Shown here piece by piece: positions 3,006 to 56,903 of a stretch of DNA of 64,000 nt (position 1 is its first letter; each line of letters opens with the position of its first letter). Location: NCBI GenBank assembly GCA_905235115.1, contig CAJOKT010000003.1, positions 11,774 to 75,773 on the forward strand, given 5' to 3'. A program made the position numbers and the translations under genes. Origin of the DNA: an uncultured Peptostreptococcaceae bacterium (GTDB taxonomy: Bacteria > Bacillota > Clostridia > Peptostreptococcales > Anaerovoracaceae). Under the pieces are notes generated by a model that saw only the letters and a program-made list of their open reading frames with translations, made no database searches and was not told the DNA's origin.

Positions 3006-3009
3006 AGCC

Positions 3010-5726: not shown

Positions 5727-5868
5727 TTCATTCCTCCAGAATATGTTTTCGGTTAAAAATAACGAAAATAGGTTTGTTTATTTCATAATAATACCATATT
5801 ATTATTGCGTCAATAATAATACAATAAAAGCAGTAAAAGACCTTCAGATGAAAGAAAGGAGAACTGAA

Positions 5869-7221
5869 ATGGCAGAAAAAATGAATCCCGCACTTATGGG
5901 TGCTACTACTTTAATTCCCCAGGGGCCTGGTTATGTGGCAGCATTTTCTTACAGCGGAGTAGCAGATGAAATCAAAGCTTACCAGACGAGCGCCTGGATT
6001 GGAACTTCCCTAATGACATCACCTGTATATGATGTATACGGACCTGATGCAGTAAAACTGTTCAGCCAGGTATGCACCAATGATTTTACAACGCTTGGAA
6101 TGAATGGAATACGTCATGCAGTTCTTTGTAATGATAAAGGGCAGATACTTACAGACGGCGTTGTTATACGCATAGGTGAAGACAGATACAGAACATACTG
6201 GCTTGATCCTGTCATTTCATATTATGTGGAACATTCAGATCTTGATGTTCACGGAGAGAACATGTCCGGAACAGAATACTTTATCCAGATAGATGGTGAG
6301 AAATCTTTGGAGATCCTGGAGGAAGCCTTCCAGGCAGATCTTCATGACATCAGATTCGGACGTCATAGAATTCAGGAAGTGAATGGTAAAGAAGTCAGAG
6401 TTATCCGTCTTGGAATGTCCGGCAATCTTGCTTATGAGATCCATGGTGATATAGCAGATTTTGAAGAAATATATGATCTTGTATGGTCAGCCGGAGAGAA
6501 ATTCGGTGCTAGAAAGCTCGGCCTTCAGGCATATAACCTGTTCAACCATACTGAAGCCGGATTCCCCAATATCAATCTTCACTATCCACTTCCTTGGTTT
6601 GAGACATCCGAAGAGATGACACAGTATATGTATCAGCATCCGGAAATGTCATTCTATAACCTTAATCGTAAGCTTTGCGGAAGTGTTGGAGACGAGCTTG
6701 ATACACGTTTCGTGACACCTTATGATGTCGGTTGGGAGTTCCTCATCAAACCGAATCATGATTTTATTGGTAAAGAAGCTCTCGAAGAACTGGCAGATAA
6801 GCCTCACAAAACGGTAGCAACTCTGGAATGGAATCCCGAAGATGTAGCAAAGGTATTTGCCACAATGATCACACCCGGTGAAGAACCTTGTGAGGATATA
6901 ACACAGCCATGCAGCGTTGACTATTCTGTGACATGCAGAGAATTCAGATTCAGCTACAATGCAGATAAAGTATTCGATAAAGATAAAGAGATAGGCATCA
7001 GCTCAGGCCGTATCATCTCCTACACCTACAATAGCATGATCTCACTTGGGTTCATTGACAGCGAATATGCTGAAGAAGGACGCGAACTTGAAGTGCTTTG
7101 GGGAACACCGGGAACAAGACAGATGAGGGTCAGGGCCAAAGTAGCAAGATTCCCTTATAACCAGGACTATGTACGTAATGAGAAGAGGGATGTATCAGAT
7201 ATTGCGTCATTCGAGAAGTAA
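5869..7221 (+). CDS. Aminomethyltransferase-family (GcvT/LigM/DesA-like, tetrahydrofolate-dependent) enzyme
   Basis: ATG 5869 has an AAGGAG SD. The 450-aa product has a GcvT-like fold signature (AWIGTS...VYGPDA..., GMSGNLAYEIHG, C-terminal barrel). The upstream part of ORF 5491.. overlaps pucR and is rejected. Confidence 0.7.
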   Translation: MAEKMNPALMGATTLIPQGPGYVAAFSYSGVADEIKAYQTSAWIGTSLMTSPVYDVYGPDAVKLFSQVCTNDFTTLGMNGIRHAVLCNDKGQILTDGVVIRIGEDRYRTYWLDPVISYYVEHSDLDVHGENMSGTEYFIQIDGEKSLEILEEAFQADLHDIRFGRHRIQEVNGKEVRVIRLGMSGNLAYEIHGDIADFEEIYDLVWSAGEKFGARKLGLQAYNLFNHTEAGFPNINLHYPLPWFETSEEMTQYMYQHPEMSFYNLNRKLCGSVGDELDTRFVTPYDVGWEFLIKPNHDFIGKEALEELADKPHKTVATLEWNPEDVAKVFATMITPGEEPCEDITQPCSVDYSVTCREFRFSYNADKVFDKDKEIGISSGRIISYTYNSMISLGFIDSEYAEEGRELEVLWGTPGTRQMRVRAKVARFPYNQDYVRNEKRDVSDIASFEK

Positions 7222-7281
7222 TGACCAGAACAGATAAAGAATCAAATATGATGGCGGCATACTTTTGTAAAAGAGAGTATG

Positions 7282-9006: not shown

Positions 9007-9614
9007 ACGTATCATCCGATGCAGCGGAACAGATAGTGAGAATGTCACTGGAAGGAATGGAAGTAGCGATTAAGATATCCGGTCAGGGGGCCAAGCTTGC
9101 AGCAGTCAGAATCGCAGCGGCACTCAATGAAGAGCAGAAGACCAGAGGCAGATCTCGTCTGACAGCCATGCTTAAGACAGGCAAGCCTTTAAAAGTATAT
9201 GAGATCCAGCAGAAGGACCTCAAGACTTTTGCCCAGGAGGCAAAACGATATGGAGTACTGTATACAGTTCTTAGGAGCAAGGATAAAAACGATACTACGA
9301 TAGATATCATCTCCAGAGTAGAGGATGCATCAAAGATCCAGAGGATAACAGAGAGGTTCAGACTTACAACTGTGGATGCAGCTGATGTGAACAATGGATT
9401 CAAAGAAAGAAAGTTCCCCAGAAGAGGAAACCCCACTATGGCTCAGACAGAAAGAGGAGATCTGTCCGGGCCAAACTCCATCAGGACAGACTCCTCACGG
9501 CAGACGATATCAAATTCTGAGAAGCCATCAGTAAGGAATAAGCTGGAAGGCTACAGGAAGGAGATAGAACTCAAGAAGGCAGTGCCGGTGATCGAGAAAG
9601 AGAAGGCCAGATGA
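9003..9614 (+). CDS. PcfB/DUF3801-like protein
   Basis: GKPLKVYEIQQKDLKTFAQEAKRYGVLYTVL matches my memory of the PcfB family. It sits between the relaxase and the coupling protein. Confidence 0.65.
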   Translation: MNVSSDAAEQIVRMSLEGMEVAIKISGQGAKLAAVRIAAALNEEQKTRGRSRLTAMLKTGKPLKVYEIQQKDLKTFAQEAKRYGVLYTVLRSKDKNDTTIDIISRVEDASKIQRITERFRLTTVDAADVNNGFKERKFPRRGNPTMAQTERGDLSGPNSIRTDSSRQTISNSEKPSVRNKLEGYRKEIELKKAVPVIEKEKAR

Positions 9615-9615
9615 T

Positions 9616-11433
9616 ATGAACGCGAGAGAAAAGACGAGTGATCTCATACTCTATGCCTTAGTCGGAGCCATACCAGTAATATGGATAGGCCTTGTATTAG
9701 CTCCATACTCAAATGAAGGTATTGTATATATTGCATCGCATATTGACGATATATTCAGCGATCCATTTGATATAAGGCTGAATGGAAGCAGCATCAGAAC
9801 GGTGCTGCTTTTCCTTTTGGCCTATGCTATGGGAATAGGCATTTATCTGTCGTCAAGGAAAAATTACAGACGGGGTGAGGAGCATGGCTCGGCTAAATGG
9901 GGTGCACCTTTTGCACTGAATAAGAAGTATGCAGACCACGACTATGAAAATAATAAACTACTGACTCAGAATGTCAGGATCGGACTTGATGGCAGGAAGC
10001 ACAGAAGAAATCTTAATGTGATTGTGATCGGCGGTTCAGGTGCAGGTAAGACCAGATTCTACTGCAAGCCCAACCTCATGCAGTCCAATACTTCGTTTGT
10101 CGTGCTCGACCCAAAAGGTGAGCAGTTAAGAGATACAGGTCACCTACTTGAAGAAAAGGGATATGAGATTAGAGTGTTGGACCTTATTAATATGGACAGA
10201 TCTCACTGCTATAATCCATTCGTCTATTTACGAAATGACAATGATGTACAGAGACTTGTGACCAACCTGTTCAAGGCAACTACACCCAAAGGATCGCAAA
10301 CCAGTGATCCGTTCTGGGATACAGCAGCACAAATGCTTTTGCTTGCACTCATATTCTATCTTCTGTATGAAGCACCTGTAGAGGAGCAGAATTTTGCAAT
10401 GGTTATGGAGATGATCAGAGCTGGGGAAGTCGATGAAGTAAACAACTTACCAAGTGCATTGGACAATCTTTTTAATGATCTGAGGAAGACAGATCCGTAT
10501 CACATATCGTTAAAATACTATGATGCCTATCATACAGGAGCTGCAAAGACTATCCAGTCCATTCAGATCACTCTGGCATCCAGACTTGAGAAGTTCAACC
10601 TTGAGAGCTTGGCTAAACTTACAATAACCGATGAGATGGATCTGGAGCAGCTTGGAGAGAAGAAGTATGCCATCTTTGCACTTATACCGGATAATGACAC
10701 CTCCTTCAACTTCCTGGTATCGATGCTGTATACTCAGCTTTTCCAACAGCTATTTGAAGTAGCCGATAAGAAGTATGGAGGAAGCCTGCCTGTACATGTG
10801 CATTTCCTTATGGATGAGTTTGCAAATGTTTCTCTTCCGGATGACTTCGATAAGATCCTTTCAGTAATGAGATCCAGAGGAGTATCAGTCAGTATAATTT
10901 TGCAGAACCTTGCACAGCTCAAGGCACTATTTGAGAAGCAGTGGGAGAGTATCGTAGGTAACTGCGACGAGTTCGTATACCTGGGAGGAAACGAACAGGC
11001 GACTCATAAATATGTGAGTGAGCTTCTTGGCAAGGAGACCATAGACCAGGATACCTTTAACAGAACGTTTGGGTCCAAAGGATCATACACAAGAAACGGA
11101 TCCCTTCAGGGAAGAGACCTGATGACAGCAGATGAAGTTCGAATGTTGGATAACAGAAACGCAATATTATTTATACGAGGAGAAAGACCTGTGATGGATC
11201 TCAAGTATGACATCATGAAGCATCCAAATGTGGCGCTTTCAGCAGATGGAAAAGCCGAACCATATATCCATGGTGACACCAAGGATGCTATGGGAACCAT
11301 CGTTATAACAGGTCAGGTGGATACAGATGAAGGAGAAAAAAGAGAGCCTCAGGAAAGCAGATTTGAGCTGCTTACGGAGGATGAAATCGAAAACGAAATA
11401 CAACGTACGGAAGGAGAAAGAAAAAATGACTAA
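9616..11433 (+). CDS. Type IV coupling protein (VirD4/TraG family)
   Basis: Two N-terminal TM helices, Walker A VIGGSGAGKT and Walker B HFLMDEF. Confidence 0.9.
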   Translation: MNAREKTSDLILYALVGAIPVIWIGLVLAPYSNEGIVYIASHIDDIFSDPFDIRLNGSSIRTVLLFLLAYAMGIGIYLSSRKNYRRGEEHGSAKWGAPFALNKKYADHDYENNKLLTQNVRIGLDGRKHRRNLNVIVIGGSGAGKTRFYCKPNLMQSNTSFVVLDPKGEQLRDTGHLLEEKGYEIRVLDLINMDRSHCYNPFVYLRNDNDVQRLVTNLFKATTPKGSQTSDPFWDTAAQMLLLALIFYLLYEAPVEEQNFAMVMEMIRAGEVDEVNNLPSALDNLFNDLRKTDPYHISLKYYDAYHTGAAKTIQSIQITLASRLEKFNLESLAKLTITDEMDLEQLGEKKYAIFALIPDNDTSFNFLVSMLYTQLFQQLFEVADKKYGGSLPVHVHFLMDEFANVSLPDDFDKILSVMRSRGVSVSIILQNLAQLKALFEKQWESIVGNCDEFVYLGGNEQATHKYVSELLGKETIDQDTFNRTFGSKGSYTRNGSLQGRDLMTADEVRMLDNRNAILFIRGERPVMDLKYDIMKHPNVALSADGKAEPYIHGDTKDAMGTIVITGQVDTDEGEKREPQESRFELLTEDEIENEIQRTEGERKND

Positions 11434-11758
11434 GATCAAGAACACAGAAGAAAAGAATCATATGAAGAGTGACCGTCTGGCCATGGCAGTCTATACAGGA
11501 ACTGTTCTTGCCATGACGCTTGGTGCAGGGATGGCATTCGCAGACGGGGATCCGATTGCTGTAGTGAACAATCTGTCCAACTTCATATTCTCTCTGATCC
11601 GGGCCATCGGTCTGATACTCCTGGGACTTGGTATCATGCAGGTAGGACTTTCTCTTAAGTCCCATGATCCGTCCCAGAGAGCTAACGGATTCCTGACTCT
11701 GGCAGGTGGAATTATAATCACATTCACGAAGGAGATACTGACTATGATTACAGGGTAG
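11426..11758 (+). CDS. Maff2-like / VirB2-like small membrane protein
   Basis: ATG 11426 follows a GGAAGGAG SD and overlaps the T4CP stop. The ~110-aa product has a signal-like segment and two hydrophobic helices. Confidence 0.5.
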   Translation: MTKIKNTEEKNHMKSDRLAMAVYTGTVLAMTLGAGMAFADGDPIAVVNNLSNFIFSLIRAIGLILLGLGIMQVGLSLKSHDPSQRANGFLTLAGGIIITFTKEILTMITG

Positions 11759-15277: not shown

Positions 15278-15610
15278 ATGGAAGTCAGGATAAACAGAGA
15301 AATAAGGGAATATACGGAAAGTATGTTTTTCGGACTGTCCATGAGGCAGTTCTTTTTTTCTGTCCTGGCTATTATTGCAGCTGTCGGTTTCTACTTCGCT
15401 TTGAGACCGGTCCTTCCAATGGAAACGGTAAGCTGGGTATGTATCCTGGCTGCCGTTCCCTTCGGGGCCATGGGTTTCATAAAGTATAACGGAATGACAG
15501 CAGAACAGTTCGTCATAGCCTGGATAAGATCTCAGATACTAATGCCGAAAAGACTGCTTTTCGGAAACACCAACATCTACTGGAAGTTATTAAAGGAGGG
15601 AAAGAAATGA
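15278..15610 (+). CDS. PrgI/TcpE-like small T4SS membrane protein
   Basis: 110 aa with two TM helices. It overlaps the virB4 start, as is typical of MPF-FA systems. Confidence 0.6.
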   Translation: MEVRINREIREYTESMFFGLSMRQFFFSVLAIIAAVGFYFALRPVLPMETVSWVCILAAVPFGAMGFIKYNGMTAEQFVIAWIRSQILMPKRLLFGNTNIYWKLLKEGKK

Positions 15611-17955
15611 TAAGGACACTGTCTAATACGATAAAACAGGACAGGGTGAAGTTCAGGATACCTAAGATCGTGCAGGATATATTCCCCATGAGGATCGCAT
15701 TCAAAGATGGGATATTCATGGAAGAAAACGGATTGTTTTCGATCATGCTCAAGTTTGAGGATATAAACTATGCTGTGGCTTCCCGCGAAGACAAGGAGAT
15801 GATGTTCCTTAAGTATTCAGATCTCCTTAATTCCCTGGACAGTGGTGCTACGACCAAGATCACCATAAACAACAGGAAGTTCAATAAGACAGACTTTGAA
15901 GAAAAGATCATGATGAAGTTCAAAGGTGATGGCCTGGATGATTACAGAAGCGAATATAACAGGATACTTCTTGATAAGGTTACAGGCGCAAATGCCATCG
16001 TTCAGGATAAGTATATTACGATCTCTGTTCATAAGAAGAATATCGAGGAAGCCAGAAACTACTTTGCAAGAGTAACATCAGATCTCATAGCAAAGTTCAA
16101 CCGTTTGGGATCTGTGTGCACTGTGCTTGATGCCAGGGAAAGACTCAGGATATATCATGATTTTTTCAGATCCGGTGAAGAAACGGACTATTACTTCGAT
16201 ATATCTGACAAGACCAGAAAAGGTCACGACTTCCGCGACTATATATCCCCTGACACTTTTGAATGCAACAGCGACTATTTCAAGATCGGAAATCGTTTCG
16301 GTCGTGTTCTGTTCCTGAGAGGCTACGCTTCATATATCAAGGATTCCATGGTAACGGAACTTACCGATATCAACAGGAACCTGATGTTCTCGATAGATGT
16401 TGTCCCGGTTCCCACGGATGAGGCAGTAAAAGAAGTCGAGCAGAGGCTTCTCGGGGTAGAGACCAATATAACGAACTGGCAGAGGAAGCAGAACATGAAT
16501 AATAACTTCTCCGCCGTTGTTCCTTATGACATGGAGCAGCAGAGGAAAGAAGCAAAGGAATTCCTGGACGACCTTACAACGAGAGACCAGAGAATGATGT
16601 TCTCCGTTATGACTGTTGTCCATACTGCAGACAGTTTAAAGGAACTGGATAACGATACTGAGGCGATCCTGACTACTGCCAGAAAGCATCTCTGCCAGAT
16701 GGCTGTTTTAAGATATCAGCAGCTTGACGGACTTAAGACTGCAGTACCATTCGGTGTGAGAAAGATAAATGCATTCAGGACCCTCACAACTGAGAGCCTT
16801 GCCGTATTCATGCCCTTCCGCGTTCAGGAGATCAGGCATCAGAACGGCATTTGCTTCGGACTGAATGCCATTTCAAAGAATCTGATTATAGCATGCGTTG
16901 AGGAACTCATGAACGGTAACTGCTTCATACTGGGCACATCCGGTTCTGGTAAATCCATGATGGCCAAGTGGTATGCGGAGCTCAAAGCCCTTCAGAAGGA
17001 CGGAGACGTAGTGATCATAGACCCGGAAAGAGAATATCATAATCTGGTAAAGGCCCTCGGAGGAGAGGTCATACAGATATCCGCCACATCCCCCAACCAC
17101 ATCAATGCTCTCGATATGTCGAGGGATTACGGCGAGATAGATCCCGTCATAGAGAAATCCCAGTTCATTATGAGTTTATGCGAGCAGATCATAGCTGGAC
17201 ACAGGTTCACCAAGGGGCAGCAGTCTATCATAGACCGCTGCACTGAGAACGTATACAGGGAGTATCAGGAGCCAAACTATACCATCAAGCCTCCGACACT
17301 GGCAGATTTCAGAGAGGAGCTCCTAAGGCAGCCTGAAAGGGAAGCCAAATCCCTTGCCCTGGAACTGGAACTCTTCACTAAGGGATCACTCAACACCTTT
17401 TCCAAGCAGACGAATGTTGATACGAATAACAGCTTGATTTGCTATGACATTCTGGAACTCGGTGAGCAGCTCAAGGCTGTAAGCATGCTGGTCATACTCG
17501 ATTCGATCCTGAACAAGATCATCGAAAACAGGAAAAAAGGAAGAAAGACATATATCTTCATCGATGAGATATATCTGCTTTTCATGCATGAATACTCCGC
17601 ACAGTTCCTTTTCAAGCTCTGGAAGAGAGTAAGGAAGTACGGAGCCTTCTGCACGGGTATCACACAGAATGTGGAGGATCTTCTCCAGTCTCATACCGCA
17701 CGCACCATGCTGTCAAACTCCGAGTTCATCATCATGCTGAATCAGGCGGCGACGGATAGAAAAGAACTCGCAAAGCTTCTCAATATCTCCGATCTTCAGA
17801 TGTCCCACATAACCAATGTGGACCCCGGACACGGTCTCATAAAGATGGGACCGAACCTGGTACCGTTCGAGAACAGCATTCCGAGAGATACCAAACTGTA
17901 TCAGCTTATGACGACAAAGTTCAACGAAGGCGTAAGGCCCGGTGGTGTTTCATGA
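15607..17955 (+). CDS. virB4: VirB4-family T4SS ATPase
   Basis: 782 aa with Walker A ILGTSGSGKS and Walker B TYIFIDEIY. Confidence 0.9.
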   Translation: MIRTLSNTIKQDRVKFRIPKIVQDIFPMRIAFKDGIFMEENGLFSIMLKFEDINYAVASREDKEMMFLKYSDLLNSLDSGATTKITINNRKFNKTDFEEKIMMKFKGDGLDDYRSEYNRILLDKVTGANAIVQDKYITISVHKKNIEEARNYFARVTSDLIAKFNRLGSVCTVLDARERLRIYHDFFRSGEETDYYFDISDKTRKGHDFRDYISPDTFECNSDYFKIGNRFGRVLFLRGYASYIKDSMVTELTDINRNLMFSIDVVPVPTDEAVKEVEQRLLGVETNITNWQRKQNMNNNFSAVVPYDMEQQRKEAKEFLDDLTTRDQRMMFSVMTVVHTADSLKELDNDTEAILTTARKHLCQMAVLRYQQLDGLKTAVPFGVRKINAFRTLTTESLAVFMPFRVQEIRHQNGICFGLNAISKNLIIACVEELMNGNCFILGTSGSGKSMMAKWYAELKALQKDGDVVIIDPEREYHNLVKALGGEVIQISATSPNHINALDMSRDYGEIDPVIEKSQFIMSLCEQIIAGHRFTKGQQSIIDRCTENVYREYQEPNYTIKPPTLADFREELLRQPEREAKSLALELELFTKGSLNTFSKQTNVDTNNSLICYDILELGEQLKAVSMLVILDSILNKIIENRKKGRKTYIFIDEIYLLFMHEYSAQFLFKLWKRVRKYGAFCTGITQNVEDLLQSHTARTMLSNSEFIIMLNQAATDRKELAKLLNISDLQMSHITNVDPGHGLIKMGPNLVPFENSIPRDTKLYQLMTTKFNEGVRPGGVS

Positions 17956-19169
17956 GAGATATAAAGACAAGGGAATCCAGAGTAGGCTCGGTCAAGACGA
18001 TTGACCGGGCCTCCATGCTCGGAGACAGGATGAAACAGGCAAGCATAAAAGGAAAAGAGCAGATCATAGGGTTCGATCAAAGTGATGATCAGACAGAGAC
18101 TGCATATGCAGAAGAAAAGACGCTTAGTATGGCTGAAGACTCAGTATATGCAGCCGAACATACCGGGGAAAATGCTGTTGAACGAGGCAGGGAACTTGCC
18201 AAAATGGCAAGTGAAAAGAGAAAAGTTGCCAATATGGCAACAGAGTATTACCAATCTGGCAATATGGAGGGAATAAAAAGTGCCAATTTGGCAAGTCTAA
18301 GAAGAGATGTTGCCAATCCGGCAAGTGAGGTTACCAATATGGCAAGTCATTCGGGTAATGTTGCCAATATGGCAAGTCAGACTTGCCAATTTGGCAAGTC
18401 CCGAAGAAGAACAACTGGATCTCCGGACCTGACTCAGGGAATCTCAAGAGATAAAGCCGAATCCATGCTTAAGAGACAATACCAGATCAGGAAAGCAAGA
18501 GAGAGTGTAACCCGTAAAGCCGAAAGAAGCGGAAAGAGGATACTTGCATCCTTAAGAAGAGTCATAAGAGATTCAAAGTTCATCACGGGCTCCCTTGCTG
18601 TAGCGGGAAGTGTCGCATTAATTGCGATAATTGTTTGCACGTTCTTTGGATCAGCCTTCTATATTCTGGGAGATGAGAACAATGAAGGATATATCCTGGG
18701 AGGTTTCGAAGGAATCGGAGATGCAGGGATCGTTGCAGTAGCTGCAAGCCAGGTGGGAAACATTGGAGGAGAGCCATACTGGAGCTGGTATGGCTTCAAT
18801 GACAGAGTTGAATGGTGCGCCTGCTTCGTATCCTGGTGTGCGAACCAATGCGGATATATATCAGACGGGATCATACCTAAGTTTGCAGGAGTAGGCACCG
18901 GTATCAACTGGTTCCAAAACCGCGGACAGTGGCAAGGAAGAGGTTATCATCCAAAGCCAGGGGATATAATCTTCTTTGACTGGGATGGAGACGGATACGG
19001 CAACCATGTCGGAATCGTAGAGAGCAGTGATGACACATATGTCTATACCATCGAAGGAAACTCTGGCGACAGGTGTAAGAGACGAACATACTTCATTACC
19101 AGCAGCATGATCATGGGATATGGGATACCTGCATATCCTGCTGCTGCCATACCACAACCGGAAGAATAA
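17952..19169 (+). CDS. CHAP-domain peptidoglycan hydrolase (T4SS lytic enzyme) with an N-terminal repeat linker and a TM segment
   Basis: The C-terminal domain has WCACFVSWC (Cys) and GNHVGIVE (His). A TM helix (LAVAGSVALIAIIVC) is present, and an ATGA overlap links it to virB4. Confidence 0.85.
   Translation: MRDIKTRESRVGSVKTIDRASMLGDRMKQASIKGKEQIIGFDQSDDQTETAYAEEKTLSMAEDSVYAAEHTGENAVERGRELAKMASEKRKVANMATEYYQSGNMEGIKSANLASLRRDVANPASEVTNMASHSGNVANMASQTCQFGKSRRRTTGSPDLTQGISRDKAESMLKRQYQIRKARESVTRKAERSGKRILASLRRVIRDSKFITGSLAVAGSVALIAIIVCTFFGSAFYILGDENNEGYILGGFEGIGDAGIVAVAASQVGNIGGEPYWSWYGFNDRVEWCACFVSWCANQCGYISDGIIPKFAGVGTGINWFQNRGQWQGRGYHPKPGDIIFFDWDGDGYGNHVGIVESSDDTYVYTIEGNSGDRCKRRTYFITSSMIMGYGIPAYPAAAIPQPEE
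18196..18397. repeat. Array of eight 15-bp palindromes TTGCCA-N3-TGGCAA embedded in the CHAP gene
   Basis: Sites start at 18196, 18226, 18248, 18280, 18310, 18331, 18361 and 18383, giving spacings of 30, 22, 32, 30, 21, 30 and 22 bp. Six sites sit at codon offset 1 and two (18248, 18383) at offset 2. Confidence 0.8.
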
Positions 19170-19391: not shown

Positions 19392-21287
19392 ATGGCTAAT
19401 CTTTCAAAAGAACGTCGAGATCGCATGATTTCTAAGTTAGAGGAATTGAAGCAGTTACATAATGATGATGTTTCAATAGCCGCTTTAAATGAGATAGAGA
19501 ATGCTCTGCGTGAAAAAAAATATGGTTTGGTTTGGGAAGAACACTCTGAGGCTGTTGATGATATGTTGCGTGACAATATCCCTGTTCTTATAGCAGATCC
19601 TGAAAGAAGGCTGTGCAAGAACGAGAAATTGCCATGGAGTTTTATTATCGAGGGTGACAATCTTCAAGCACTTTATCTGTTGGAGAAAACCCATCGTGGC
19701 AAAGTGGACTGCATATATATTGACCCGCCATATAATACTGGTGCACGTGATTGGAAATATAACAATGATTATGTTGATGGCAATGACGATTATAGGCATA
19801 GTAAGTGGTTGTCTATGATGAAAAGTCGTTTATTAGTTGCAAAACGATTATTGAATCCCTACGATTCTGTTCTTATTTGTACAATTGATGAGAAAGAGTA
19901 TTTACATCTGGGTTGTTTGTTAGAAGAGTTGTTCCCAGAAGCAACCATGCAAATGATAAGCTCTAATATTCATCATGGAGGCTCAAATCGATTAGGAGAA
20001 TTCTCTAGAACAAATGAGTTTATCTTCTTTTTAAGATTTGGCACCGCAACTATAGTGAGAGAAGTATCAAATGAAAGTGAGCCGATTCCCTGGAGAGGTT
20101 TCTCTCGCGGTAATTGGAAGAGAAAAGATAGGCCGAATCTTTTCTATCCTATTTTCATTAATAAAGAAACTGATAAGATTGAAATAATAGGAGATTCGAT
20201 GCCCCTGGAACTGGACAGGCATTCAATATCAGATATTGATGGTTGTGAAACCATTTTTCCATTGACTAAAAACGGTGATGAGACTATTTGGTGTCTGTCC
20301 CCCGGATCAGCAAGAGAACTAAATGAAAAAGGCTATTTAAAAGTATCGGTAAAAAGATCGAAAAAAAGTATCAAGTATTCTTTGTCTTATCTTACGGAAG
20401 GAATAATAAATGATTTAAACTCTGGAAAAGCTATTATTGACGGAATAGATGCTAATGGGTACGTTATGGCTCATTATCCTAAGGGAAAAGAGATGATTCC
20501 TGCAACACAGTGGAATAGAGATTCGCATGATGCAACAGTCTATGGTTCCACAATTTTAAAATCAATGATTGGTGAACGTTTTAATTTCCCAAAATCGCTA
20601 TATGCAGTGCGTGACTGTATTAATTATTTTGTGGCTAATAAGCCCAATGCTATTATCGTGGATTTTTTTGCCGGATCAGGGACAACTCTACATGCCGTAA
20701 ATTTGCTTAATGCAGAAGATAAAGGGCAACGAAAGTGTGTTTTGGTTACAAATAATGAATTATCTGAAGAAGAACAAAAGTTGTTTAAAGAAAGGAATAT
20801 TTATCAAGGGGATAAAGAATGGGAAGAACATGGCATAGCTAAGTATGTTACTTGGCCACGTAGTATTTGTTCAATTGAAGGCCATGATGTACACGGAAAG
20901 CCACTAAAAGGCAATTATCTTGGCAGTAATCTGCCTATGGCAGATGGGTTCGATGCGAATGTAAAGTATTTTAAATGCGATTGGATTCCGCGAAAACCAG
21001 ATGACTATTTGCTTTCAAATATGCTCTGCTTACACATTAAAGAGCTTATAGAATTAAAGACCGCAAGGGAAATTGACAACAAGAAAAATGTACTTATTCT
21101 TAGCAAAAGTGATTTCAATAGAGTGTTTAATGATTCTGCGGTTTCAGAAGGTATTGAATGTGTTTGGGTAAATGAAAACATAGTTTTCAATTCAACCGAA
21201 TTGAGAAAACTTAGAGAAAAAAACTTCCGCTATATCCCAAGAGAGTTTTTCAGCCAAGAGCTAAAGGAGGTTGGGGAGTATGTTTAA
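19392..21287 (+). CDS. mod: Type III restriction-modification methyltransferase (Mod)
   Basis: KYGLVWEEH N-terminal box, motif IV IYIDPPYNTG, motif I VDFFAGSGTT near the C-terminus (beta-class order), and an 8-nt overlap with res. Confidence 0.8.
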   Translation: MANLSKERRDRMISKLEELKQLHNDDVSIAALNEIENALREKKYGLVWEEHSEAVDDMLRDNIPVLIADPERRLCKNEKLPWSFIIEGDNLQALYLLEKTHRGKVDCIYIDPPYNTGARDWKYNNDYVDGNDDYRHSKWLSMMKSRLLVAKRLLNPYDSVLICTIDEKEYLHLGCLLEELFPEATMQMISSNIHHGGSNRLGEFSRTNEFIFFLRFGTATIVREVSNESEPIPWRGFSRGNWKRKDRPNLFYPIFINKETDKIEIIGDSMPLELDRHSISDIDGCETIFPLTKNGDETIWCLSPGSARELNEKGYLKVSVKRSKKSIKYSLSYLTEGIINDLNSGKAIIDGIDANGYVMAHYPKGKEMIPATQWNRDSHDATVYGSTILKSMIGERFNFPKSLYAVRDCINYFVANKPNAIIVDFFAGSGTTLHAVNLLNAEDKGQRKCVLVTNNELSEEEQKLFKERNIYQGDKEWEEHGIAKYVTWPRSICSIEGHDVHGKPLKGNYLGSNLPMADGFDANVKYFKCDWIPRKPDDYLLSNMLCLHIKELIELKTAREIDNKKNVLILSKSDFNRVFNDSAVSEGIECVWVNENIVFNSTELRKLREKNFRYIPREFFSQELKEVGEYV

Positions 21288-29731: not shown

Positions 29732-30324
29732 TGCGCAGTTATCTTACAGACGTAGATAAGAGAATACAGAGGAAATGTTCTCTTGCGATGACTGACGAGG
29801 AGGAGATGGCGGCTTTAGGGGGAAGGCTGCTGGAGATCTTCCATGACGTTTGCAGCTGCAATACTTCGAAGGCGAACGATACAGTCAATGAGATCTGCTA
29901 CTCAGACGGTGAGTACTACGATCCTTGTGAAGAGATGAGAGTGATGGAGGAATCACTGATTAAACTTGAATACTTCACTGCGGATTCAAAGAGAGATAAA
30001 TACGAAAGAGAGATCAGGAGTATACTTCAGACCGGCCATATGATCCGTATAATGGATGCATTAAAGTGCAAGGTCTACAGTTACGGAAAGTATGGGCCTG
30101 ACTTCGTAAGCATTCTGTCTACGTGCTATATGAACTCATTCGAATATACAAATGAGCAAGCGTGCGAAGTACTTAATATGTCGCTGAGCAGCTTTTACAG
30201 GAAGAAGAGAAGAGCAGTAGTGCTCTTCGGCCTCTCATTTCTCGAATATAAGGCTGAGATACAGGGACATGATCTGTTGCTCGAATGGGAGCCGGACGGA
30301 TCCCAGTTATCCATGGCAATTTGA
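29731..30324 (+). CDS. Putative HTH / sigma-70 region-4-like ICE regulator
   Basis: The C-terminal EQACEVLNMSLSSFYRKKRRAVVLFG looks like a region-4-type HTH. It sits next to the sigma factor gene, as in the Tn916-family regulatory end. Confidence 0.45.
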   Translation: MRSYLTDVDKRIQRKCSLAMTDEEEMAALGGRLLEIFHDVCSCNTSKANDTVNEICYSDGEYYDPCEEMRVMEESLIKLEYFTADSKRDKYEREIRSILQTGHMIRIMDALKCKVYSYGKYGPDFVSILSTCYMNSFEYTNEQACEVLNMSLSSFYRKKRRAVVLFGLSFLEYKAEIQGHDLLLEWEPDGSQLSMAI

Positions 30325-30327
30325 AAA

Positions 30328-30411
30328 ATGACAGTAAGCATGACAGTAAGGATGACAGTAACAGTGACAGTAAGCATGACAGTCTCCATGACAGTAAAGA
30401 TGACAACAAAC
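30328..30411 (+). repeat. Seven tandem 12-nt direct repeats (consensus ATGACAGTAAGN)
   Basis: Copies start at 30328, 30340, 30352, 30364, 30376, 30388 and 30400 (the last is degenerate). A partial copy GTGACATGACAG lies at about 30443. Confidence 0.85.
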
Positions 30412-35338: not shown

Positions 35339-38300
35339 ATGTTTTGCACTAATTGCGGTAAGGAAATCAAACCCAATGACAAGTTTTGCGCCAACTGCGG
35401 AGCGCCCGTGAATCAGGGTTCTCAGGGAGGCAGGTACGACAACGTGGTGTTCAATCCCCCCTTCAGGAAGGAGGCTGACAAGAAGTCCAGCGAGATCCTG
35501 AACAGCAGGGGAGATTTCACCAAATTCACTGATCTGGCTCAGGAGGAAAACCGCCGCCAGCAGAGGTCCAAGGCGAGAATGGACTGGAATCTTGACGGGT
35601 TCCCTGCCAGCTCAAGAGTGGACAACACTCCGCTTTTCGACTGGGATTCTGTTGCCGAGCGCAAAAGATCCGCTGCGCCTGATCCCGACATGGGCTCTAC
35701 TCAGGAACATATCAGGGTGACTCCCCAGCAGGAAAGATCATACGGCCTTCCATCTGACGACGACAGGGTAGTGCCGCTGGACGAGCTGGAGAAGGAGCTT
35801 TATGCGCTGGAGGACGACCTGAAGTCAGAGACAGCCAGAACCGCCGAATATGACAAGGCCAAGGTCAAGGAAATAGAAAACAGCGTGGAGCTGGATTCAT
35901 ATCTGGACGGGATCTCCCCGGAGGGCAAAAGACCCGAGAAGGCTTCTGAGGTTGCAGCCAGGGAGAGGAAGGCACAGAGCGAGGCCCAGGCTTTAGCAGA
36001 GGCCGCCAGAAAGAAGGAGGAGGCAAGATATGCCTCCATGACTAAGGCAGAGCGTGTCATCGCTGCCATGAAGAAGGACGCAGGAATGAAGTGGGACCTG
36101 GAGGAGCCTGCCCACAAGGAGGACGTCAAAGCTGCTTCATCCATGGGTCTCAACTGGGATATGGATCCCGCTGAAGCTGCCAGAAAGAAGAGAGCAGAGA
36201 AGCTTGCTTCCGGCGAGAAGAAGATGATCTGGAACGCTGAAGAGCGTGAGGCTCAGCTTAAGGCGCAGGAGGCTGCCCGCAGGGAGGCTCTTCTCAGGGC
36301 GCAGATGGAGGCCGAGGCGGCACGCCGCGCTAAGGAAGAGGCTGAGCGCAAGACCAGAGAAGAGGCGGAGGCGGCAGCCAGAGCACAGGCGGAAGCCGAG
36401 GCTGAGGCTCTTGCAAGAGCCAGGGCTGAAGAGGAAGCCGCAGAGGCCGCCAGGATCCAGGCGGAGGCAGAAGAACTTGCCAGGCGGAAGGCTGAAGAAG
36501 AGGCCAGAGCACTGGCTGAGGCCGAAGAAAGAGCCAGACAGGAGGCTGCTGCGCAGGCAGCGGCCGCAATGGCTGAGCAGGAGGCCAGACGCCAGGCTGA
36601 ACAGGCCAGAAAGGCAGCTGAACAGGAAGCGGCCAGGATCGAGGCTGAAACTTCCGAAAAGATCAGCTCCGATGTGAGCCTTGAGTTCGATGAGCTCATG
36701 AGGGAAGCCCAGCCTGCAGGATTTGAAAAGACCAGAGTATTCGACCAGGAAGCGCTGGATGCTCTTAACAGAGAAGCAAAAGAAAGGGCGGACTCCTCAA
36801 ACGCCGGATCCGGCGCAGCACTTGGGGCAGCGGCATTAGGAGCCGCGGGTCTTGGAGCTGCGGCGTCCCTGACCGGCCGGGAAAGACCGGTTCGCAGCCC
36901 TTACCAGTCTGACTTCGTTCCCGCATGGGAGAGAGAGCAGACCGAAAAGAATCCGGATGCCGCAGGGCACGTCGCAAGCAGGACCGAGGAAATGGCCAGA
37001 CTGGACGCGCTTCTTGAGGAACTTACGGCTGAGAAGAAACATCTGGAGGAAGAGGTAAAAGCGGAGGCACCGGCAGAGGAGCCCGCATCCGGGCATGCCG
37101 CGGATGAGCTTGAGACACCGGCTCCGGAGCCCTTTGATACAGAAACCGAAACCGAACACACAGCAGGACCCCGGACTGAGTCTGCACCGGAGCCGGAAGC
37201 AACTGCCGCGGCTGAAGAAGAGACACCCGGGATCGTGGACCTTACAGGCAAGGGAGACGAAAGGTTTTACACCTTCTCCCAGAAGAACGCGGAATTCCAG
37301 GAACTTCTTCAGAAGGAAAAGGAAAGACTGAGGGAGATGGGTTCCGGATACGTTCCCAGGAACACCCTTTCTCAGAACGCTGTACTCGCCAACTTCGGCG
37401 TGCTTCCCGCGCTGGCCTATGAGGAAAACGGCGTCTACGTGGAGGGCATCGACCAGCCCAAGGCTTCGGAGGGAGTCGACTATTCCGGATACGGCGAGCC
37501 CAATCAGGGCACCGCGTGGAAACCTGGACAGGGCGGCGACCTTCTTTCCGAACTGGCTGACGAAGCACCGTCTCCTGCCAAAAAGACCAGACTCAGATAT
37601 TCGGATCTTTTCCCTGCGGAGGACGTGAATCACGCGGAGAATCAGAAGAAGGCAGCGGAGGCTGCTGCAGCTGCGGCAGCTGCAGGACTTGCATCGGAGG
37701 CCGCGAAAGAGACAGATGCAGTTCCTCAGGAAAGATATCAGACTGCCACCGGGATCTCCGGCGCTACAGGCATCACAAATGCAGTGGATACTGAGGACGT
37801 TCCCGACATCAACAAGATCTTCGACGAGGACGAAGAGCAGAAGCCCAGGAAGCACATCGTAGGCAATATCATCATTGCCATCCTTGTACTTCTCATCCTC
37901 TTCGAAGCATCCATTCTTGCGGCCAAGCTCATCGCTCCGGACAGCGCATATTCCAGACTGACGGATCCTGTGATCGAGAAGATCATGGATCTTGCCACAT
38001 CCATCGGAAAGGATGAGGAACCTGAACAACCTGCCATAGATGACGAGGCTCTTGAGAGAGAAGCAGCGGCCATCACTCTTGAACAGACCATTTCGGAGCT
38101 TTCCGCTGAGGCTGAGACTCTGGGCGAAGTAAGGTACAACGCGGACCTTACATATGATAAGGTGGACAATCCCCACTTCGACGGCATCGTGGACATGATC
38201 CCCCTGGACAACGGACTTTTCACCATAAATGAGAACGGTGAGGGAGTGTCCTACGCTGAAGCCATCGCCAGAGAGGTGATCCAGTACTATGACGGATGGC

Positions 38301-54251: not shown

Positions 54252-54532
54252 GTCCCGGCGGATACGGCGGCATCAGGGCCGGAGAGAGCTTTTATGACAC
54301 GGAGCAGCGGCCAAAAGGCTCCGGATCCCACTTGAATGCGGCGAAAGCAGTACAGATGAACAACAATGAGAAACGCAGGTCCGAAGGGATTGCCTGCGTT
54401 TTTTGATGTTTTGCGAAGGGGAAATCGTATACAATTCCGGCATATTGCGCACCGACGGGACAGAGTGATATGCTTATTTTGACACATCCGTACAGTACTT
54501 TTGAGAAGCCATATCGATATGAGGGGGAAAGA

Positions 54533-55321
54533 ATGAGATTATCAAGGAACAACATAAAGGCGAGAGCGGATTATTTAATGGATCTGATCGCTGAAAAGTC
54601 TGTAGCTTTGGAGGGGTTATCCGGGGAAAAGATAAGAGTCAGCTCCGGGAAAAGCGGGAGACATTATTTGGTGAAATTCGAAGGCGGAACAGAAAAATAT
54701 CTTAGAAAATCAGAGATGGATCTCGCCAGAAAAATAGTTCAAGGAGAATATGACGAGAGAATAGTCGCAGCTGCCAGATCAGAGCTGGTGACCCTGAGAG
54801 CATTGCTAAACAAATATGATAAAGGAACAGTGGAAGAAATATATGATGCTCTTGCTCCGGCCAGGCGAGAACTCGTAGAACCGATTTTGATGCCTGATGA
54901 CGAATTCATCAGGAAGTGGCTGGATGAACCCTATGAAAAAGCATGGTTTGGACCCGGTGAACACGGCTACTGTACATCGAACCAACTGCTGGTAAGGTCA
55001 AAATCAGAGGTCATATTCGCAGACAAATATGCTGAACACAGTATACCTTATAAATATGAGTACCCTCTATATCTCGAGGGATTCGGGACAACAAGGCCTG
55101 ACTTCACGTTGCTTAAGATAAAGTACAGGCGAGTCATATATCATGAACACTTTGGAATGATGGACGATCCTGAGTACGCAGAAAGGGCAATCAGGAAAAT
55201 ACATGCCTACGAGGATAACGGGTATATTCTGGGAAGAGATCTGATTGCTACTTTCGAAACGAAATCTGATCCAATAGACGCCAGCGATGCGGAAATGTTG
55301 ATCAGAAGGTATTTGTTGTAG
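54533..55321 (+). CDS. Hypothetical protein with a PD-(D/E)xK-like C-terminal pattern
   Basis: ATG 54533 follows a GAGGGGGA SD. The C-terminal SKSEVIFADKY...RPDFTLL...VIYHEHFGM is reminiscent of restriction-endonuclease-fold proteins. Weak. Confidence 0.45.
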   Translation: MRLSRNNIKARADYLMDLIAEKSVALEGLSGEKIRVSSGKSGRHYLVKFEGGTEKYLRKSEMDLARKIVQGEYDERIVAAARSELVTLRALLNKYDKGTVEEIYDALAPARRELVEPILMPDDEFIRKWLDEPYEKAWFGPGEHGYCTSNQLLVRSKSEVIFADKYAEHSIPYKYEYPLYLEGFGTTRPDFTLLKIKYRRVIYHEHFGMMDDPEYAERAIRKIHAYEDNGYILGRDLIATFETKSDPIDASDAEMLIRRYLL

Positions 55322-55358
55322 CGTGTAGCTGGGCTGGACAGGGATAAACTTTCAATTC

Positions 55359-56228
55359 GCCCTGCCTGCAGGAAAAAACCGGCTCACAGGCAGGGCAGAA
55401 CCCTGTTTTCGCCCTGCCAGCAGGAAAAAACCGGCTCACAGGCAGGGCAGAGAGCCACTTTCGCCCTGCCTGTAGGAAAAAACCGGCTCACAGGCAGGGC
55501 AGAACCCTGTTTACGCCCTGCCTGTAGGAAAAAACCGGCTCACAGGCAGGGCAGAACCCTGTTTACGCCCTGCCTGCAGGAAAAAACCAGCTCACAGGCA
55601 GGGCAGAGAGACATTTTTGCCCTGTCTGCAGGAAAAAACCGGCTCACAGGCAGGGCAGAGAGCCACTTACACCCTGCCTGCAGGAAAAAACCGGCTCACA
55701 GGCAGGGCAGAGAGCCACTTACACCCTGCCTGTAGGAAAAAATCAGCGCACAGGCAGGGCAGAGAGCCACTTTCGCCCTGCCTGTAGGAAAAAATCAGCT
55801 CACAGGCAGGGCAGAACCCTGTTTTCGCCCTGCCTGTAGGAAAAAATCAGCGCACAGGCAGGGCAGAGAGACATTTTCGCCCTGCCTGTAGGAAAAAACC
55901 AGCTCACAGGCAGGGCAGAGAGCCACTTTCGCCCTGCCTGCAGGAAAAAATCAGCGCACAGGCAGGGCAGAGAGACACTTTCGCCCTGCCTGTAGGAAAA
56001 AACCGGCGCTCCGGCAGGGCAGAACCCTGTTTTCGCCCTGCCTGCAGGAAAAAATCAGCGCACAGGCAGGGCAGAGAGACATTTTTGCCCTGCCTGCAGA
56101 AAAAAACCGGCTCACAGGCAGGGCAGAACCCTGTTTTCGCCCTGCCTGCAGGAAAAAACCAGCTCACAGGCAGGGCAGAGAGCCACTTTCGCCCTGCCTG
56201 CAGGAAAAAATCAGCTCACAGGCAGGGC
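55359..56228 (+). repeat. Tandem array of 17 units with an exact 52-bp period; each unit is a 38-nt GC-stem hairpin plus a 14-nt linker
   Basis: Unit starts run from 55359 in steps of 52 to 56191. The stem is GCCCTGCCTG/CAGGCAGGGC. Loop and linker cassettes each occur in 3-5 variants. Confidence 0.95.
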
Positions 56229-56254
56229 AATCTTAAAAGGCGAGATCCAAACAT

Positions 56255-56281
56255 CAAAAATAGACCCCGCGCAGCGGGGTC
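56255..56281 (-). terminator. Terminator of the ECF S-component gene
   Basis: GACCCCGC-GCA-GCGGGGTC, followed on the minus strand by TATTTTTGATG. Confidence 0.75.
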
Positions 56282-56300
56282 TTCACATTCTATCGTTCTT

Positions 56301-56903
56301 TTATCTGTGAGCGAAAACGAAGTATTTTCCGGCGGGGGTCTTGAGCAGTGCGTGAGTCAGCAGCACCGCGACCACCATGGAGCACATGAACTGCCCGATG
56401 TTGCCGGGGATAGACATGAAGCCCACTGCGATGTTGCCGTATACAATTGCATTAACGAAGATGTAGATCACCACTTCCGTGAAGCCGCCCAGAATCATGG
56501 CCAGAAATTCGTAGGGGGCTATGCTCAGTATCAGGGTGGGCTTCCAGGTCTCGCCCTTGAGAGCGGATTCCTCCGCCAGCAGATCTTCACGCTTGTGGCC
56601 GCGCTCGACGATCTCGCCCATGACGAAGGCCATGAGGCCTTTTGCGATGAAGGTGCCTGGGGCAAAGATCACATAGCCGCCTAAGATGTCGGCCAGAGCC
56701 GCGCCGACTGAAGAGGCGATGGCTCCGTTTTTTTTGCCCAGGACCAGAACGCTCATGAATATGAAGGTATCCCCCAGGTGTACATAGCCCTGAGTCAGGG
56801 GGTTAGGCACTTTGAGGGCGAAGGTGGCAAGGCAGACCAGACCCAGCATGAGAGCTGTAAGTACCAGATCGTCTGTTTTATCTATCCTTCTCATTTGAAG
56901 CAC
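56301..56903 (-). CDS. ECF-transporter S component (substrate-capture subunit; possibly vitamin B6-related)
   Basis: ~200-aa membrane protein with 6 hydrophobic helices. It is divergent from a MocR/PdxR-type regulator. The substrate assignment is inference only. Confidence 0.6.
   Translation of the reverse strand: MLQMRRIDKTDDLVLTALMLGLVCLATFALKVPNPLTQGYVHLGDTFIFMSVLVLGKKNGAIASSVGAALADILGGYVIFAPGTFIAKGLMAFVMGEIVERGHKREDLLAEESALKGETWKPTLILSIAPYEFLAMILGGFTEVVIYIFVNAIVYGNIAVGFMSIPGNIGQFMCSMVVAVLLTHALLKTPAGKYFVFAHR

Follow-up and report, generated by a model that had tools for sequence, protein, structure and literature searches.

A Helix-Phased Array of Inverted-Repeat Units Beside a Predicted PD-(D/E)xK Nuclease Gene, a Candidate DNA Platform for Its Protein

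Results and Discussion

Layout and Variation of the Array

The window considered here, a 64-kb stretch of DNA (64,000 nucleotides) from an uncultured Peptostreptococcaceae bacterium (contig CAJOKT010000003.1), holds an array of 17 palindromic units with an exact 52-bp period at positions 55359..56228, delimited by a tandem-repeat call, a pattern scan and an alignment of the units, and entered without a strand. It adjoins a gene for a 262-aa protein (54533-55321) which, as an earlier note on this DNA had proposed, is co-oriented with the array and nuclease-like, and it is the pairing of this gene with this array that we analyze in the present work. Tandem Repeats Finder (TRF) reports one tandem array at 55356-56229 (period 52, 16.8 copies, score 1218), and the rigid phasing described in the earlier note holds throughout, with 17 units in register from 55359 in steps of 52 bp and zero indels. 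The 20-nt pattern GCCCTGCCTGNAGGAAAAAA, when up to three mismatches are allowed, gives 17 matches, every one of them at 55359+52n (0.02 expected), and the 9-nt arm CCCTGCCTG is present in 31 copies in the window, all within the array (0.55 expected). Dispersal of the kind known for repetitive extragenic palindromes (REPs) is thus not seen in the 64-kb window, where every unit and arm copy sits inside the array, and the exact window unit was not found in the viral contig collection.

Each unit is composed of a 38-bp core and a 14-bp linker (absent from the final unit), with the core in turn comprising a 10-bp arm, GCCCTGCCTG, an 18-bp spacer with an A6 tract, and the inverted arm, CAGGCAGGGC. 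Our recount over the 17 units gives the same cassette counts as had been reported: the loop cassettes are CCGGCTCA (seven units), TCAGCGCA (four), CCAGCTCA (three), TCAGCTCA (two) and CCGGCGCT (one), and the linkers are AGAACCCTGTTT[T/A]C (six units), AGAGAGCCACTT[T/A]C (six) and AGAGAGACA[T/C]TTT[T/C] (four), while unit position 11 is C in 10 units and T in seven. The array is non-coding, as had been claimed, with stops in all six frames (two to three per plus-strand frame) and a longest start-codon open reading frame (ORF) of 87 aa inside it. It is also not an array of clustered regularly interspaced short palindromic repeats (CRISPR), since whole 52-bp units repeat, linkers included, and the conserved arms are inverted.

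Pairwise identity among the window units is 77–100% (mean 87%), from which we take the 17-unit array to be a recent expansion by unequal recombination. In a second assembly of the same strain (L091; loci are numbered in this way throughout), the first 13 units are identical and are followed by a different order of units, and in a third (L092) the contig breaks at the array, so that either the copy number is variable or short reads cannot assemble the array. Both the unit identity, as a sign of recent expansion, and the copy number that differs between assemblies would suit a neutral minisatellite, in which a terminator-like palindrome was amplified by slippage and stands beside the gene by chance and without function, as would the syntenic locus L001, where there is only a 97-bp gap at the corresponding position. 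The family-wide data presented below, however, strongly disfavor such an origin, to the point that we consider it very improbable.

The Adjoining Protein and Its Family

Searches of Pfam, NCBIfam, PHROG and Protein Data Bank (PDB) sequences returned no family for the 262-aa protein, nor did Pfam, NCBIfam or PHROG for 37 of its relatives, and PADLOC matched it only to the C-terminus of the candidate PDC-S68 (residues 146-259, E 7.6e-24). An AlphaFold2 (AF2) model built with 37 homologues has a predicted local distance difference test (pLDDT) score of 92.5. When this model is searched with Foldseek, the C-terminal ~115 residues match Bax1, DrdV, MunI and the R2 restriction-like endonuclease in the PDB, and Endonuclease I, a restriction endonuclease, a Holliday-junction resolvase, TnsA and homing/intron endonucleases in BFVD, with probabilities of 0.9–1.0 but modest E-values (1e-4 to 1e-1). 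Residues K157, E159, D190, E205, H206 and K222 are invariant across the aligned homologues and constitute the putative catalytic set. The structure prediction, the PADLOC match and the invariant columns together uphold the PD-(D/E)xK-like call that had been made for this gene product, and place a predicted DNA nuclease domain at residues 146-262 (54968..55321, plus strand).

The same nuclease domain ends ~1200–1330-aa Walker-A proteins, annotated as AAA ATPase or RecD-like helicases, which are the counterparts of PDC-S68 and are carried by viral contigs (L142–L160) and by the plasmids NZ_AP028130.1, NZ_CP013539.1 and NZ_CP047896.1. The RecD-like helicase proteins share 32–43% identity with residues ~148-262 of the window protein, and at L161 the domain is found on a RecQ-like helicase. 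That the domain is elsewhere fused to helicases argues for a DNA substrate.

The variable N-terminal module, codons 1-112 (54533..54868, plus strand), was delimited from AF2 models, the identity profile along the protein, and the block swaps described below. In the models (pLDDT 92.5 and 84.7), the N-terminal 140 residues comprise a helix at 2–27, three β-strands at 33–56, and a long helix at 59–96. Foldseek on the N-terminal domain alone found nothing significant, the weak matches being prefoldin- or V-ATPase-stalk-like coiled coils and a chemokine-like β-β-β-α fragment; an AP2- or integrase-type DNA-binding fold, which we had suspected from the topology, is therefore unsupported.

At E ≤ 1e-3, a profile search with the N-terminal region recovered 3,979 cluster representatives, a number that falls to 2,502 at E ≤ 1e-10. 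The top 150 matches are all ~264 aa in length or fragments, and, judged by these sequences, the ~264-aa proteins form a large unannotated family of fixed architecture, the carriers of which include Lachnospiraceae, Butyrivibrio, other Clostridia, Fibrobacter, Treponema and Coriobacteriia, with several copies in some genomes. No full-length member was found on 72,556 plasmids, and one full-length homologue lies on a 4.2-kb unannotated 'Bacteriophage sp.' fragment. Within the family, the mean pairwise identity is 0.27 in the N-terminal half vs 0.43 in the C-terminal half.

Association of Gene and Array across Relatives

The association was assessed over 83 loci, 79 of them non-redundant. Across the 83 loci, tandem repeats cover 10–20% of the 750-bp stretch that precedes the gene, vs ~1% elsewhere. 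As TRF under-detects arrays in which loops and linkers have diverged (for example, L002, L012 and L013), we replaced it with a detector of inverted-7-mer chains. By this detector, 27 of the 79 non-redundant loci have at least three inverted-repeat units no more than 900 bp from the gene, compared to 3 of 550 background windows, and 40 of the 79 have at least two units. One of the three background arrays itself precedes a second family gene, in L072, where two array-gene modules stand in tandem (2092-3309 and 5635-6771) with different arms (TACGGGT vs TACGCGC). The link between array and PD-(D/E)xK-like neighbor that had been proposed for the window thus recurs in its relatives, and an association of this strength across the family speaks against a functionless repeat placed beside the gene by chance. 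Arrays in members from Clostridia, Fibrobacter, Treponema and Coriobacteriia follow the same design, each with an arm sequence of its own, and the pairing appears to extend to thousands of bacteria of the gut and rumen.

The side on which the array lies varies. In most relatives it is upstream, in the leader, and in others it is downstream or on both sides, such that the position in a 3′ untranslated region, which the earlier note had considered, is not a trait of the family. Close relatives carry ~1–6 units with stems (TTACTGCTTG, TTACTGTACA, TTACGGCTT) that differ from those of the window. An absence of the array from close relatives had been named as an observation that would point to a neutral repeat, and here the answer is divided: the sequence and the side do change, while the design is conserved. 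At L001, the 97-bp gap downstream of the gene holds no array, and four 52-bp hairpin-type units with a different stem are found upstream instead; we had considered these to be a reversed homologue of the window array, but they are better read as an array with the opposite orientation of its central A/T-tract. At three loci (L094, L128 and L131) the arrangement is array-gene-array, and the downstream array repeats the units of the upstream one in unchanged order.

We also note that the upstream and downstream arrays of L128 start with the same two units, and that the first unit (promoter- or gene-proximal) of L094, L095, L096 and L012 often has a T-rich spacer, with the A6 tract appearing in the units that follow. 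Arrays may therefore have a distinct first unit. Among the short-read contigs L003–L010 (protein P0052) and L092, many begin or end where the array lies, 50–290 bp away from the gene. Arrays systematically break metagenome assemblies, which explains contig breaks beside family genes in short-read metagenomes, and very short contigs hold more than their share of family members.

The distribution of the arrays also bears on whether they could be mobile palindromes similar to REPs or to bacterial interspersed mosaic elements (BIMEs). In an analogue of the REPIN-RAYT systems (REP doublets forming hairpins, and REP-associated tyrosine transposases), single-stranded hairpins would be spread and amplified by the nuclease, with the arrays as by-products. 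Palindromic units with mosaic linkers do flank a low-copy gene, with each protein lineage having its own repeat, and the module persists vertically at one locus, as REPIN-RAYT systems are reported to do (bioRxiv 10.1101/2021.07.10.451892). Furthermore, L057 has three same-arm arrays (TACCGAAGTA/TACTTCGGTA) within 7 kb, at 4845-5383, 6830-7227 and 10978-11496, and arrays whose arms are related (TTACGGAAGTA) occupy further intergenic regions (2107-2357 and 9303-9376). L057 is, however, the only sign of REP-like dispersal seen: the 64-kb window holds no unit outside its array, and far arrays are rare (3/550 windows, one of which belongs to a second gene copy). In addition, the protein does not belong to the HUH/Y1 transposases, arrays that flank the gene are direct and not inverted, and, as shown in the following sections, stem variants within arrays are uncompensated, with helical phasing and arm-only conservation indicating selection on duplex geometry. 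We therefore regard an origin of this kind as improbable.

Joint Variation of Array and N-Terminal Module

L002 and L013 represent the same chromosomal locus in related genomes, and comparing them separates the module into conserved and exchanged parts. Their flanks, their promoter/palindrome region and codons ~112-264 are 94–100% identical at the DNA level, whereas identity drops to 32–66% over the array and the first ~110 codons, with arms TCCTACT vs TAGTACT; the corresponding protein identities are 0.54 (N-terminal) and 0.98 (C-terminal). L164 and L165 show a similar profile, with protein identities of 0.50 (N-terminal) and 0.96 (C-terminal), 40–65% DNA identity over the upstream flank and the first ~105 codons, and 90–100% over the rest of the gene and 180 bp downstream of it. 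L164 has an array upstream, and no arms are present in the 162 bp available upstream at L165. In L166 and L168 (N-terminal 0.62, C-terminal 0.97), the first ~70–80 codons alone diverge, and there is almost no upstream sequence for L168. Because the upstream sequences of L165 and L168 are short, the swap of the array is seen directly only in L002/L013. Across the family, arrays are common to different loci only at an N-terminal identity of at least 0.94.

The array and the N-terminal module thus vary together, which suggests that the N-terminal ~110 residues are what reads the array arms. That the two are swapped together is a further point against a neutral minisatellite.

Core Geometry and Helical Phasing

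The core of the family unit consists of two inverted arms of 9–14 bp with a near-constant 28–31 bp between arms. When 41 arrays are aligned on their dyad, the conserved bases fall in the same register, 9–20 bp from the dyad, despite different arm sequences, and the window array (row L091) shares this arm register with the 40 others. In the older arrays (L065, L066, L124, L030, L076 and L109), spacers and linkers are unrelated from unit to unit, with only the arms and the distances being kept; the window array has this design as well, in a form that is young and homogeneous.

In 70 non-redundant arrays, 110 core-to-core spacings cluster at 51–54, 61–65, 73–75, 83–86, 93–96 and 103–107 bp, with the classes at 52, 63, 74, 85, 95 and 105 bp, as well as at sums of these, and among the 175 spacings there are only isolated outliers between classes (41, 44, 81, 101, 114 and 122 bp). 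A Rayleigh scan peaks at a period of 10.50–10.55 bp with R 0.79, compared to a maximum R of 0.32 in 2,000 random sets. The core being constant, this translates into linker classes of ~14, 25, 35, 46, 57 and 67 bp, and neighboring linkers in one array can differ by one or two turns and be unrelated in sequence. Alignments of the units rule out that the extra ~10.5 bp of the longer linkers are extra arm copies. The 52 bp of the window is thus the five-turn member of a series that extends from five to ten turns.

This geometry is of the duplex type. The spacing period equals the helical repeat of B-DNA, which is what would be expected if proteins on successive cores must face the same side of the duplex, and a quantization by 10.5 bp is without evident meaning for RNA or for single-stranded hairpins. 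The strong helical quantization, the same core geometry in 41 arrays with unrelated arms, and the maintenance of the arms while the rest of the unit diverges are likewise hard to reconcile with slippage of a neutral repeat.

Tests for an RNA or Hairpin Role

The earlier note had placed its emphasis on hairpins, and in particular on a multi-hairpin RNA. This emphasis was not sustained, as stems are uncompensated, mismatches are balanced, polarity is absent and linker lengths are helical. In the window, the stem variants of units 2, 6, 7, 8 and 13 are uncompensated, and L094 contains all four C/T × G/A combinations at one arm pair. Over 29 arrays, arm mismatches comprise 137 sense-strand G·T and 162 A·C (p = 0.17), i.e., there is no G·U excess. 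The A/T and G/C skews of spacers and linkers relative to the gene are positive in 14–21 of 32 upstream arrays, which corresponds to no polarity, and the central A- or T-tract is found in either orientation across arrays. Searching Rfam with the window region returned only chance-level miRNA/snRNA matches far below the gathering score, and with 12 related loci only tRNAs. RNA folding of four units gives z values of -7.2 and -6.8 on the two strands, with promiscuous pairing between units. Cruciform extrusion with recognition of the Holliday-junction type was also considered and dropped, as arms of 9–12 bp with loops of 14–20 nt make poor cruciforms and the stems are uncompensated.

These data are most relevant to an arrangement resembling type III toxin–antitoxin systems, in which the array would be co-transcribed and its hairpin RNA units would neutralize the nuclease as ToxI does ToxN. 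In most relatives the repeats do lie directly upstream of a solitary nuclease gene and downstream of a conserved promoter, the repeats and the protein co-vary, and the module is self-contained, fast evolving and present in several copies per genome. However, the 10.5-bp quantization of the linkers would be meaningless for a single-stranded RNA, and only the stems are conserved, with loops and linkers free, whereas proteins usually read loops and not A-form stems. To this can be added the lack of both G·U excess and polarity, the units of L001, which are inverted relative to the gene, and arrays that are also found downstream or kilobases away. L001, L002, L012 and L096 have no terminator between array and gene, where type III systems usually have one, and the protein, for which there is no Pfam match, is not a ToxN, CptN, TenpN or AbiF, its nuclease domain being otherwise fused to DNA helicases. 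Overall, an RNA antitoxin of this kind appears to us to have little chance of being the correct explanation.

Locus Context and Evolution

Upstream of the gene lies a near-palindrome, GGAAATCGTATACAATTCC (54420..54438, without a strand), a possible operator with a conserved core that abuts the -35 element. The core, ATCGTATAC(A/G)AT, occurs in all fetched relatives of at least 43% identity, those in other chromosomal contexts included, and lies 100–470 bp ahead of the gene. It is conserved independently of the arm sequence of the array, and in L002/L013 it lies in the 100%-identical block, outside the swapped segment; the palindrome may be bound by the conserved nuclease half or by a host regulator. 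The predicted promoter that follows (54445..54474, plus strand) comprises a -35 element TTGCGC (54445-54450), a TG (54466-54467) and a -10 element TATGCT (54469-54474). Its position and sequence are kept in the window, L001, L094, L095, L096, L002 and L012, and a promoter-like element precedes the module in all relatives of at least 43% identity, outside the swapped block. As a simple consensus scan did not call it, the assignment is by phylogenetic footprint only. In the 5′ untranslated region, a remnant, GTACAGTAC (approximately 54486..54500, plus strand), corresponds to the 3′ arm in the array that lies upstream at L096, and it is likely, from this match, that the window lineage once had an upstream array with different, older arms that has since been lost.

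On its far side, the array is bounded, as had been proposed, by the terminator of the convergent gene for an energy-coupling factor (ECF) riboflavin S-component (56301-56903, minus strand). This terminator is a GC-rich hairpin, AGACCCCGCGCAGCGGGGTCT (56262..56282, without a strand), shared between the two sides as a bidirectional intrinsic terminator, and a homologous hairpin is present at the same place in L001, L011, L094 and L097. Ten of the larger ORFs between 49.4 and 60.5 kb (Rnf, ApbE, ECF-S, GntR-aminotransferase, Sir2 and thiolase) include no Cas family by Pfam. L001 has the same gene order (Rnf-ApbE-gene-ECF-S-GntR-Sir2-thiolase), and its identity to the window is 96% for the thiolase, 83% for ECF-S, 68% for ApbE and 55% for the 262-aa protein, from which we conclude that the module is old at this site and fast evolving.

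The constancy of the site is also important for evaluating a platform for homing or recombination, a variant at the DNA level of the binding platform proposed below, in which the units would be cleavage targets, with nuclease domains dimerizing over the non-conserved 18-bp spacer. Such dimerization of nuclease domains over a spacer is known from FokI and from pairs of transcription activator-like effector nucleases (TALENs). Breaks, together with array copies on both flanks, would then let the gene enter and leave arrays and drive array turnover and allele replacement. This would fit the loci at which the gene stands between two arrays of identical units and unit order (L094, L128 and L131), the syntenic relatives with 1–17 units upstream, downstream or on both sides, the different specificities seen at the same locus, a spacer of constant length and free sequence, the invariant catalytic residues, and the homing and intron endonucleases among the BFVD fold matches. 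Conversely, a homing gene of the classical kind interrupts its own target, yet here the sites next to the gene remain intact, and cleavage does not need helical phasing over many units. The gene stays at one chromosomal site across species, as the identities of its neighbors at L001 illustrate, and no gene-less array turned up at a syntenic site, although no scan aimed at these was made. We consider this platform unlikely, yet worth keeping in view as a candidate role.

Elsewhere in the window, 18195-18400 contains at least nine copies of a 15–16-bp palindrome (TTGCCAAT-N-TGGCAA and variants) spaced ~21–30 bp apart. They lie inside the 5′ part of an ORF with a CHAP domain (17952-19169), and TRF reports part of them with periods of 51 and 21. 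The region is conjugative-element-like, with a TraG/VirB4-type ATPase at 15607-17955 and a DNA methylase at 19392-21287, and these palindromes may form an array of binding sites (centromere, oriT or regulator) within coding sequence. Short tandem repeats with 12/36-bp periods at 30324-30405 and several GA-rich periods of 18–24 bp at 36335-36626 are probably coding repeats.

A Probable Double-Stranded DNA Platform for the Adjacent Protein

Taking these data together, it seems to us probable that the array serves the protein of the adjacent gene as a platform of double-stranded DNA with 17 predicted binding sites. Of the four candidate roles put forward in the earlier note, this corresponds to the protein-binding array for the neighboring nuclease-like protein, and it is the one that the comparative data favor. 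We envisage that a dimer of the 262-aa protein would read the two inverted 10-bp half-sites of each 38-bp core by means of its N-terminal module. As successive cores lie exactly five helical turns (52 bp) apart, the bound dimers would be aligned on one face of the DNA, such that cooperative binding would be possible, and the A6 tract, being repeated in phase, should add intrinsic curvature. Gene and array would then constitute a self-contained, fast-evolving module in which reader and sites change together, and the complex of protein and array would most likely serve to restrain a sequence-specific nuclease that is potentially dangerous, and to regulate it. In most relatives, with the array in the transcribed leader, the gene would be repressed by a roadblock, and in the window, with the array downstream, the protein would be sequestered in cis. 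A module of this description fits a selfish or defense type, and as candidate biological roles we would name regulation of the nuclease by itself, its sequestration, or the homing/recombination platform discussed above.

Several observations weigh against binding of this kind. The half-site centers are ~29 bp apart (2.8 turns), which is unusually far for a dimer, and the N-terminal module is without a DNA-binding fold recognizable by Foldseek. The TTAC...GTAA ends that are frequent among relatives are missing from the window arms, GCCCTGCCTG, which are taken to be cognate by their geometry only. It is also puzzling that a nuclease with intact catalytic residues should tolerate its own site in so many copies. 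With the detectors used, no array was seen at about half of the family loci, possibly due to low sensitivity or contig ends, and one of the same-arm arrays of L057 (Lachnospiraceae) is found 4.3 kb from the gene, behind EamA/transporter and two-component-system genes. Finally, upstream arrays are necessarily transcribed, which leaves room for an RNA role.

We would extend the argument further only tentatively, to what is possibly, with odds that we place below even, a new class of chromosomal module: a small nuclease with an exchangeable N-terminal reader of ~20 bp inverted half-sites, and with a phased array in cis that would serve as an antidote at the DNA level, a regulator or a landing pad, with reader and array co-diversifying under conflict. 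If so, double-stranded DNA would play the part that RNA has in type III toxin–antitoxin systems, or methylation in restriction-modification, and this would be a possible new logic for restraining a chromosomal nuclease. Should the platform model hold, a large unannotated family would gain a testable partner in its own flanking DNA array, and the spacing by whole helical turns, a rule readable from the sequence, would provide rare direct genomic evidence for cooperative nucleoprotein assembly. L002/L013, and probably L164/L165, would represent natural swaps of a specificity module with which to study a new DNA-recognition domain of ~110 residues on a nuclease, which may be of practical interest. 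On the more tentative reading, the 2,502 clusters that the family comprises at E ≤ 1e-10 would constitute a natural library of modular recognition domains for long DNA sites.

Comparison with Known Systems

We found no curated family (Pfam, NCBIfam or Rfam) and no literature description of the pairing of gene and array, on which basis we provisionally rate it as a new kind of system. Its regular non-coding repeats, palindromic content, period of 50–75 bp and position beside a nuclease-type gene are shared with CRISPR arrays. CRISPR arrays are, however, made of 23–50-bp direct repeats between unique spacers of comparable length, whereas the conserved elements here are inverted and alternating, the 'spacers' of the window are themselves repeated, and the period changes in steps of helical turns. 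The PDC-S68 and RecD-like helicase-nucleases have a homologous C-terminal nuclease domain, but are ~1200 aa long, carry helicase/ATPase modules and are without the N-terminal module of the window protein.

Similarly to the ToxIN, CptIN and TenpIN systems, short tandem repeats stand directly upstream of a solitary nuclease gene in compact, rapidly diversifying modules with pairwise specificity between repeat and protein. Here, in contrast, the toxin family is unrelated, the position and orientation of the array are variable (downstream in the window), conservation is limited to the inverted arms, and there is 10.5-bp quantization without a substitution pattern of the RNA type. With REP/BIME elements and REPIN-RAYT systems, the present modules have in common the clustered palindromic units, the mosaic linkers, a low-copy enzyme gene flanked by its own lineage-specific repeats, and long-term vertical inheritance. 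They differ in the fold of the enzyme, which is PD-(D/E)xK by Foldseek (Pfam giving no match) and not HUH/Y1 as in the IS200/IS605 TnpA-like proteins, and in having units that are essentially confined to the flanks of the gene, in direct, helix-phased arrays, with no sign of selection for hairpin pairing.

A further comparison can be made with the iteron and centromere arrays that lie beside the gene for their binder, such as sopC/SopB of F, incC-repA-incA of P1 and parC/ParR of R1. Unlike a Rep, ParB or ParR protein, the protein of the window is a predicted PD-(D/E)xK nuclease that carries a new N-terminal module. Neither a partner NTPase nor a replicon is present, the loci of the family being chromosomal and between housekeeping genes, and the units are much longer, at 5–10 helical turns. 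As in those arrays, however, the sites are in tandem and in helical register (10.5 bp, R 0.79), and adjoin, upstream, downstream or on both flanks, the gene for the protein that would bind them; the sites of iteron and centromere arrays may likewise hold inverted repeats, their specificity co-evolves with the protein, and arrays in the leader can autoregulate.

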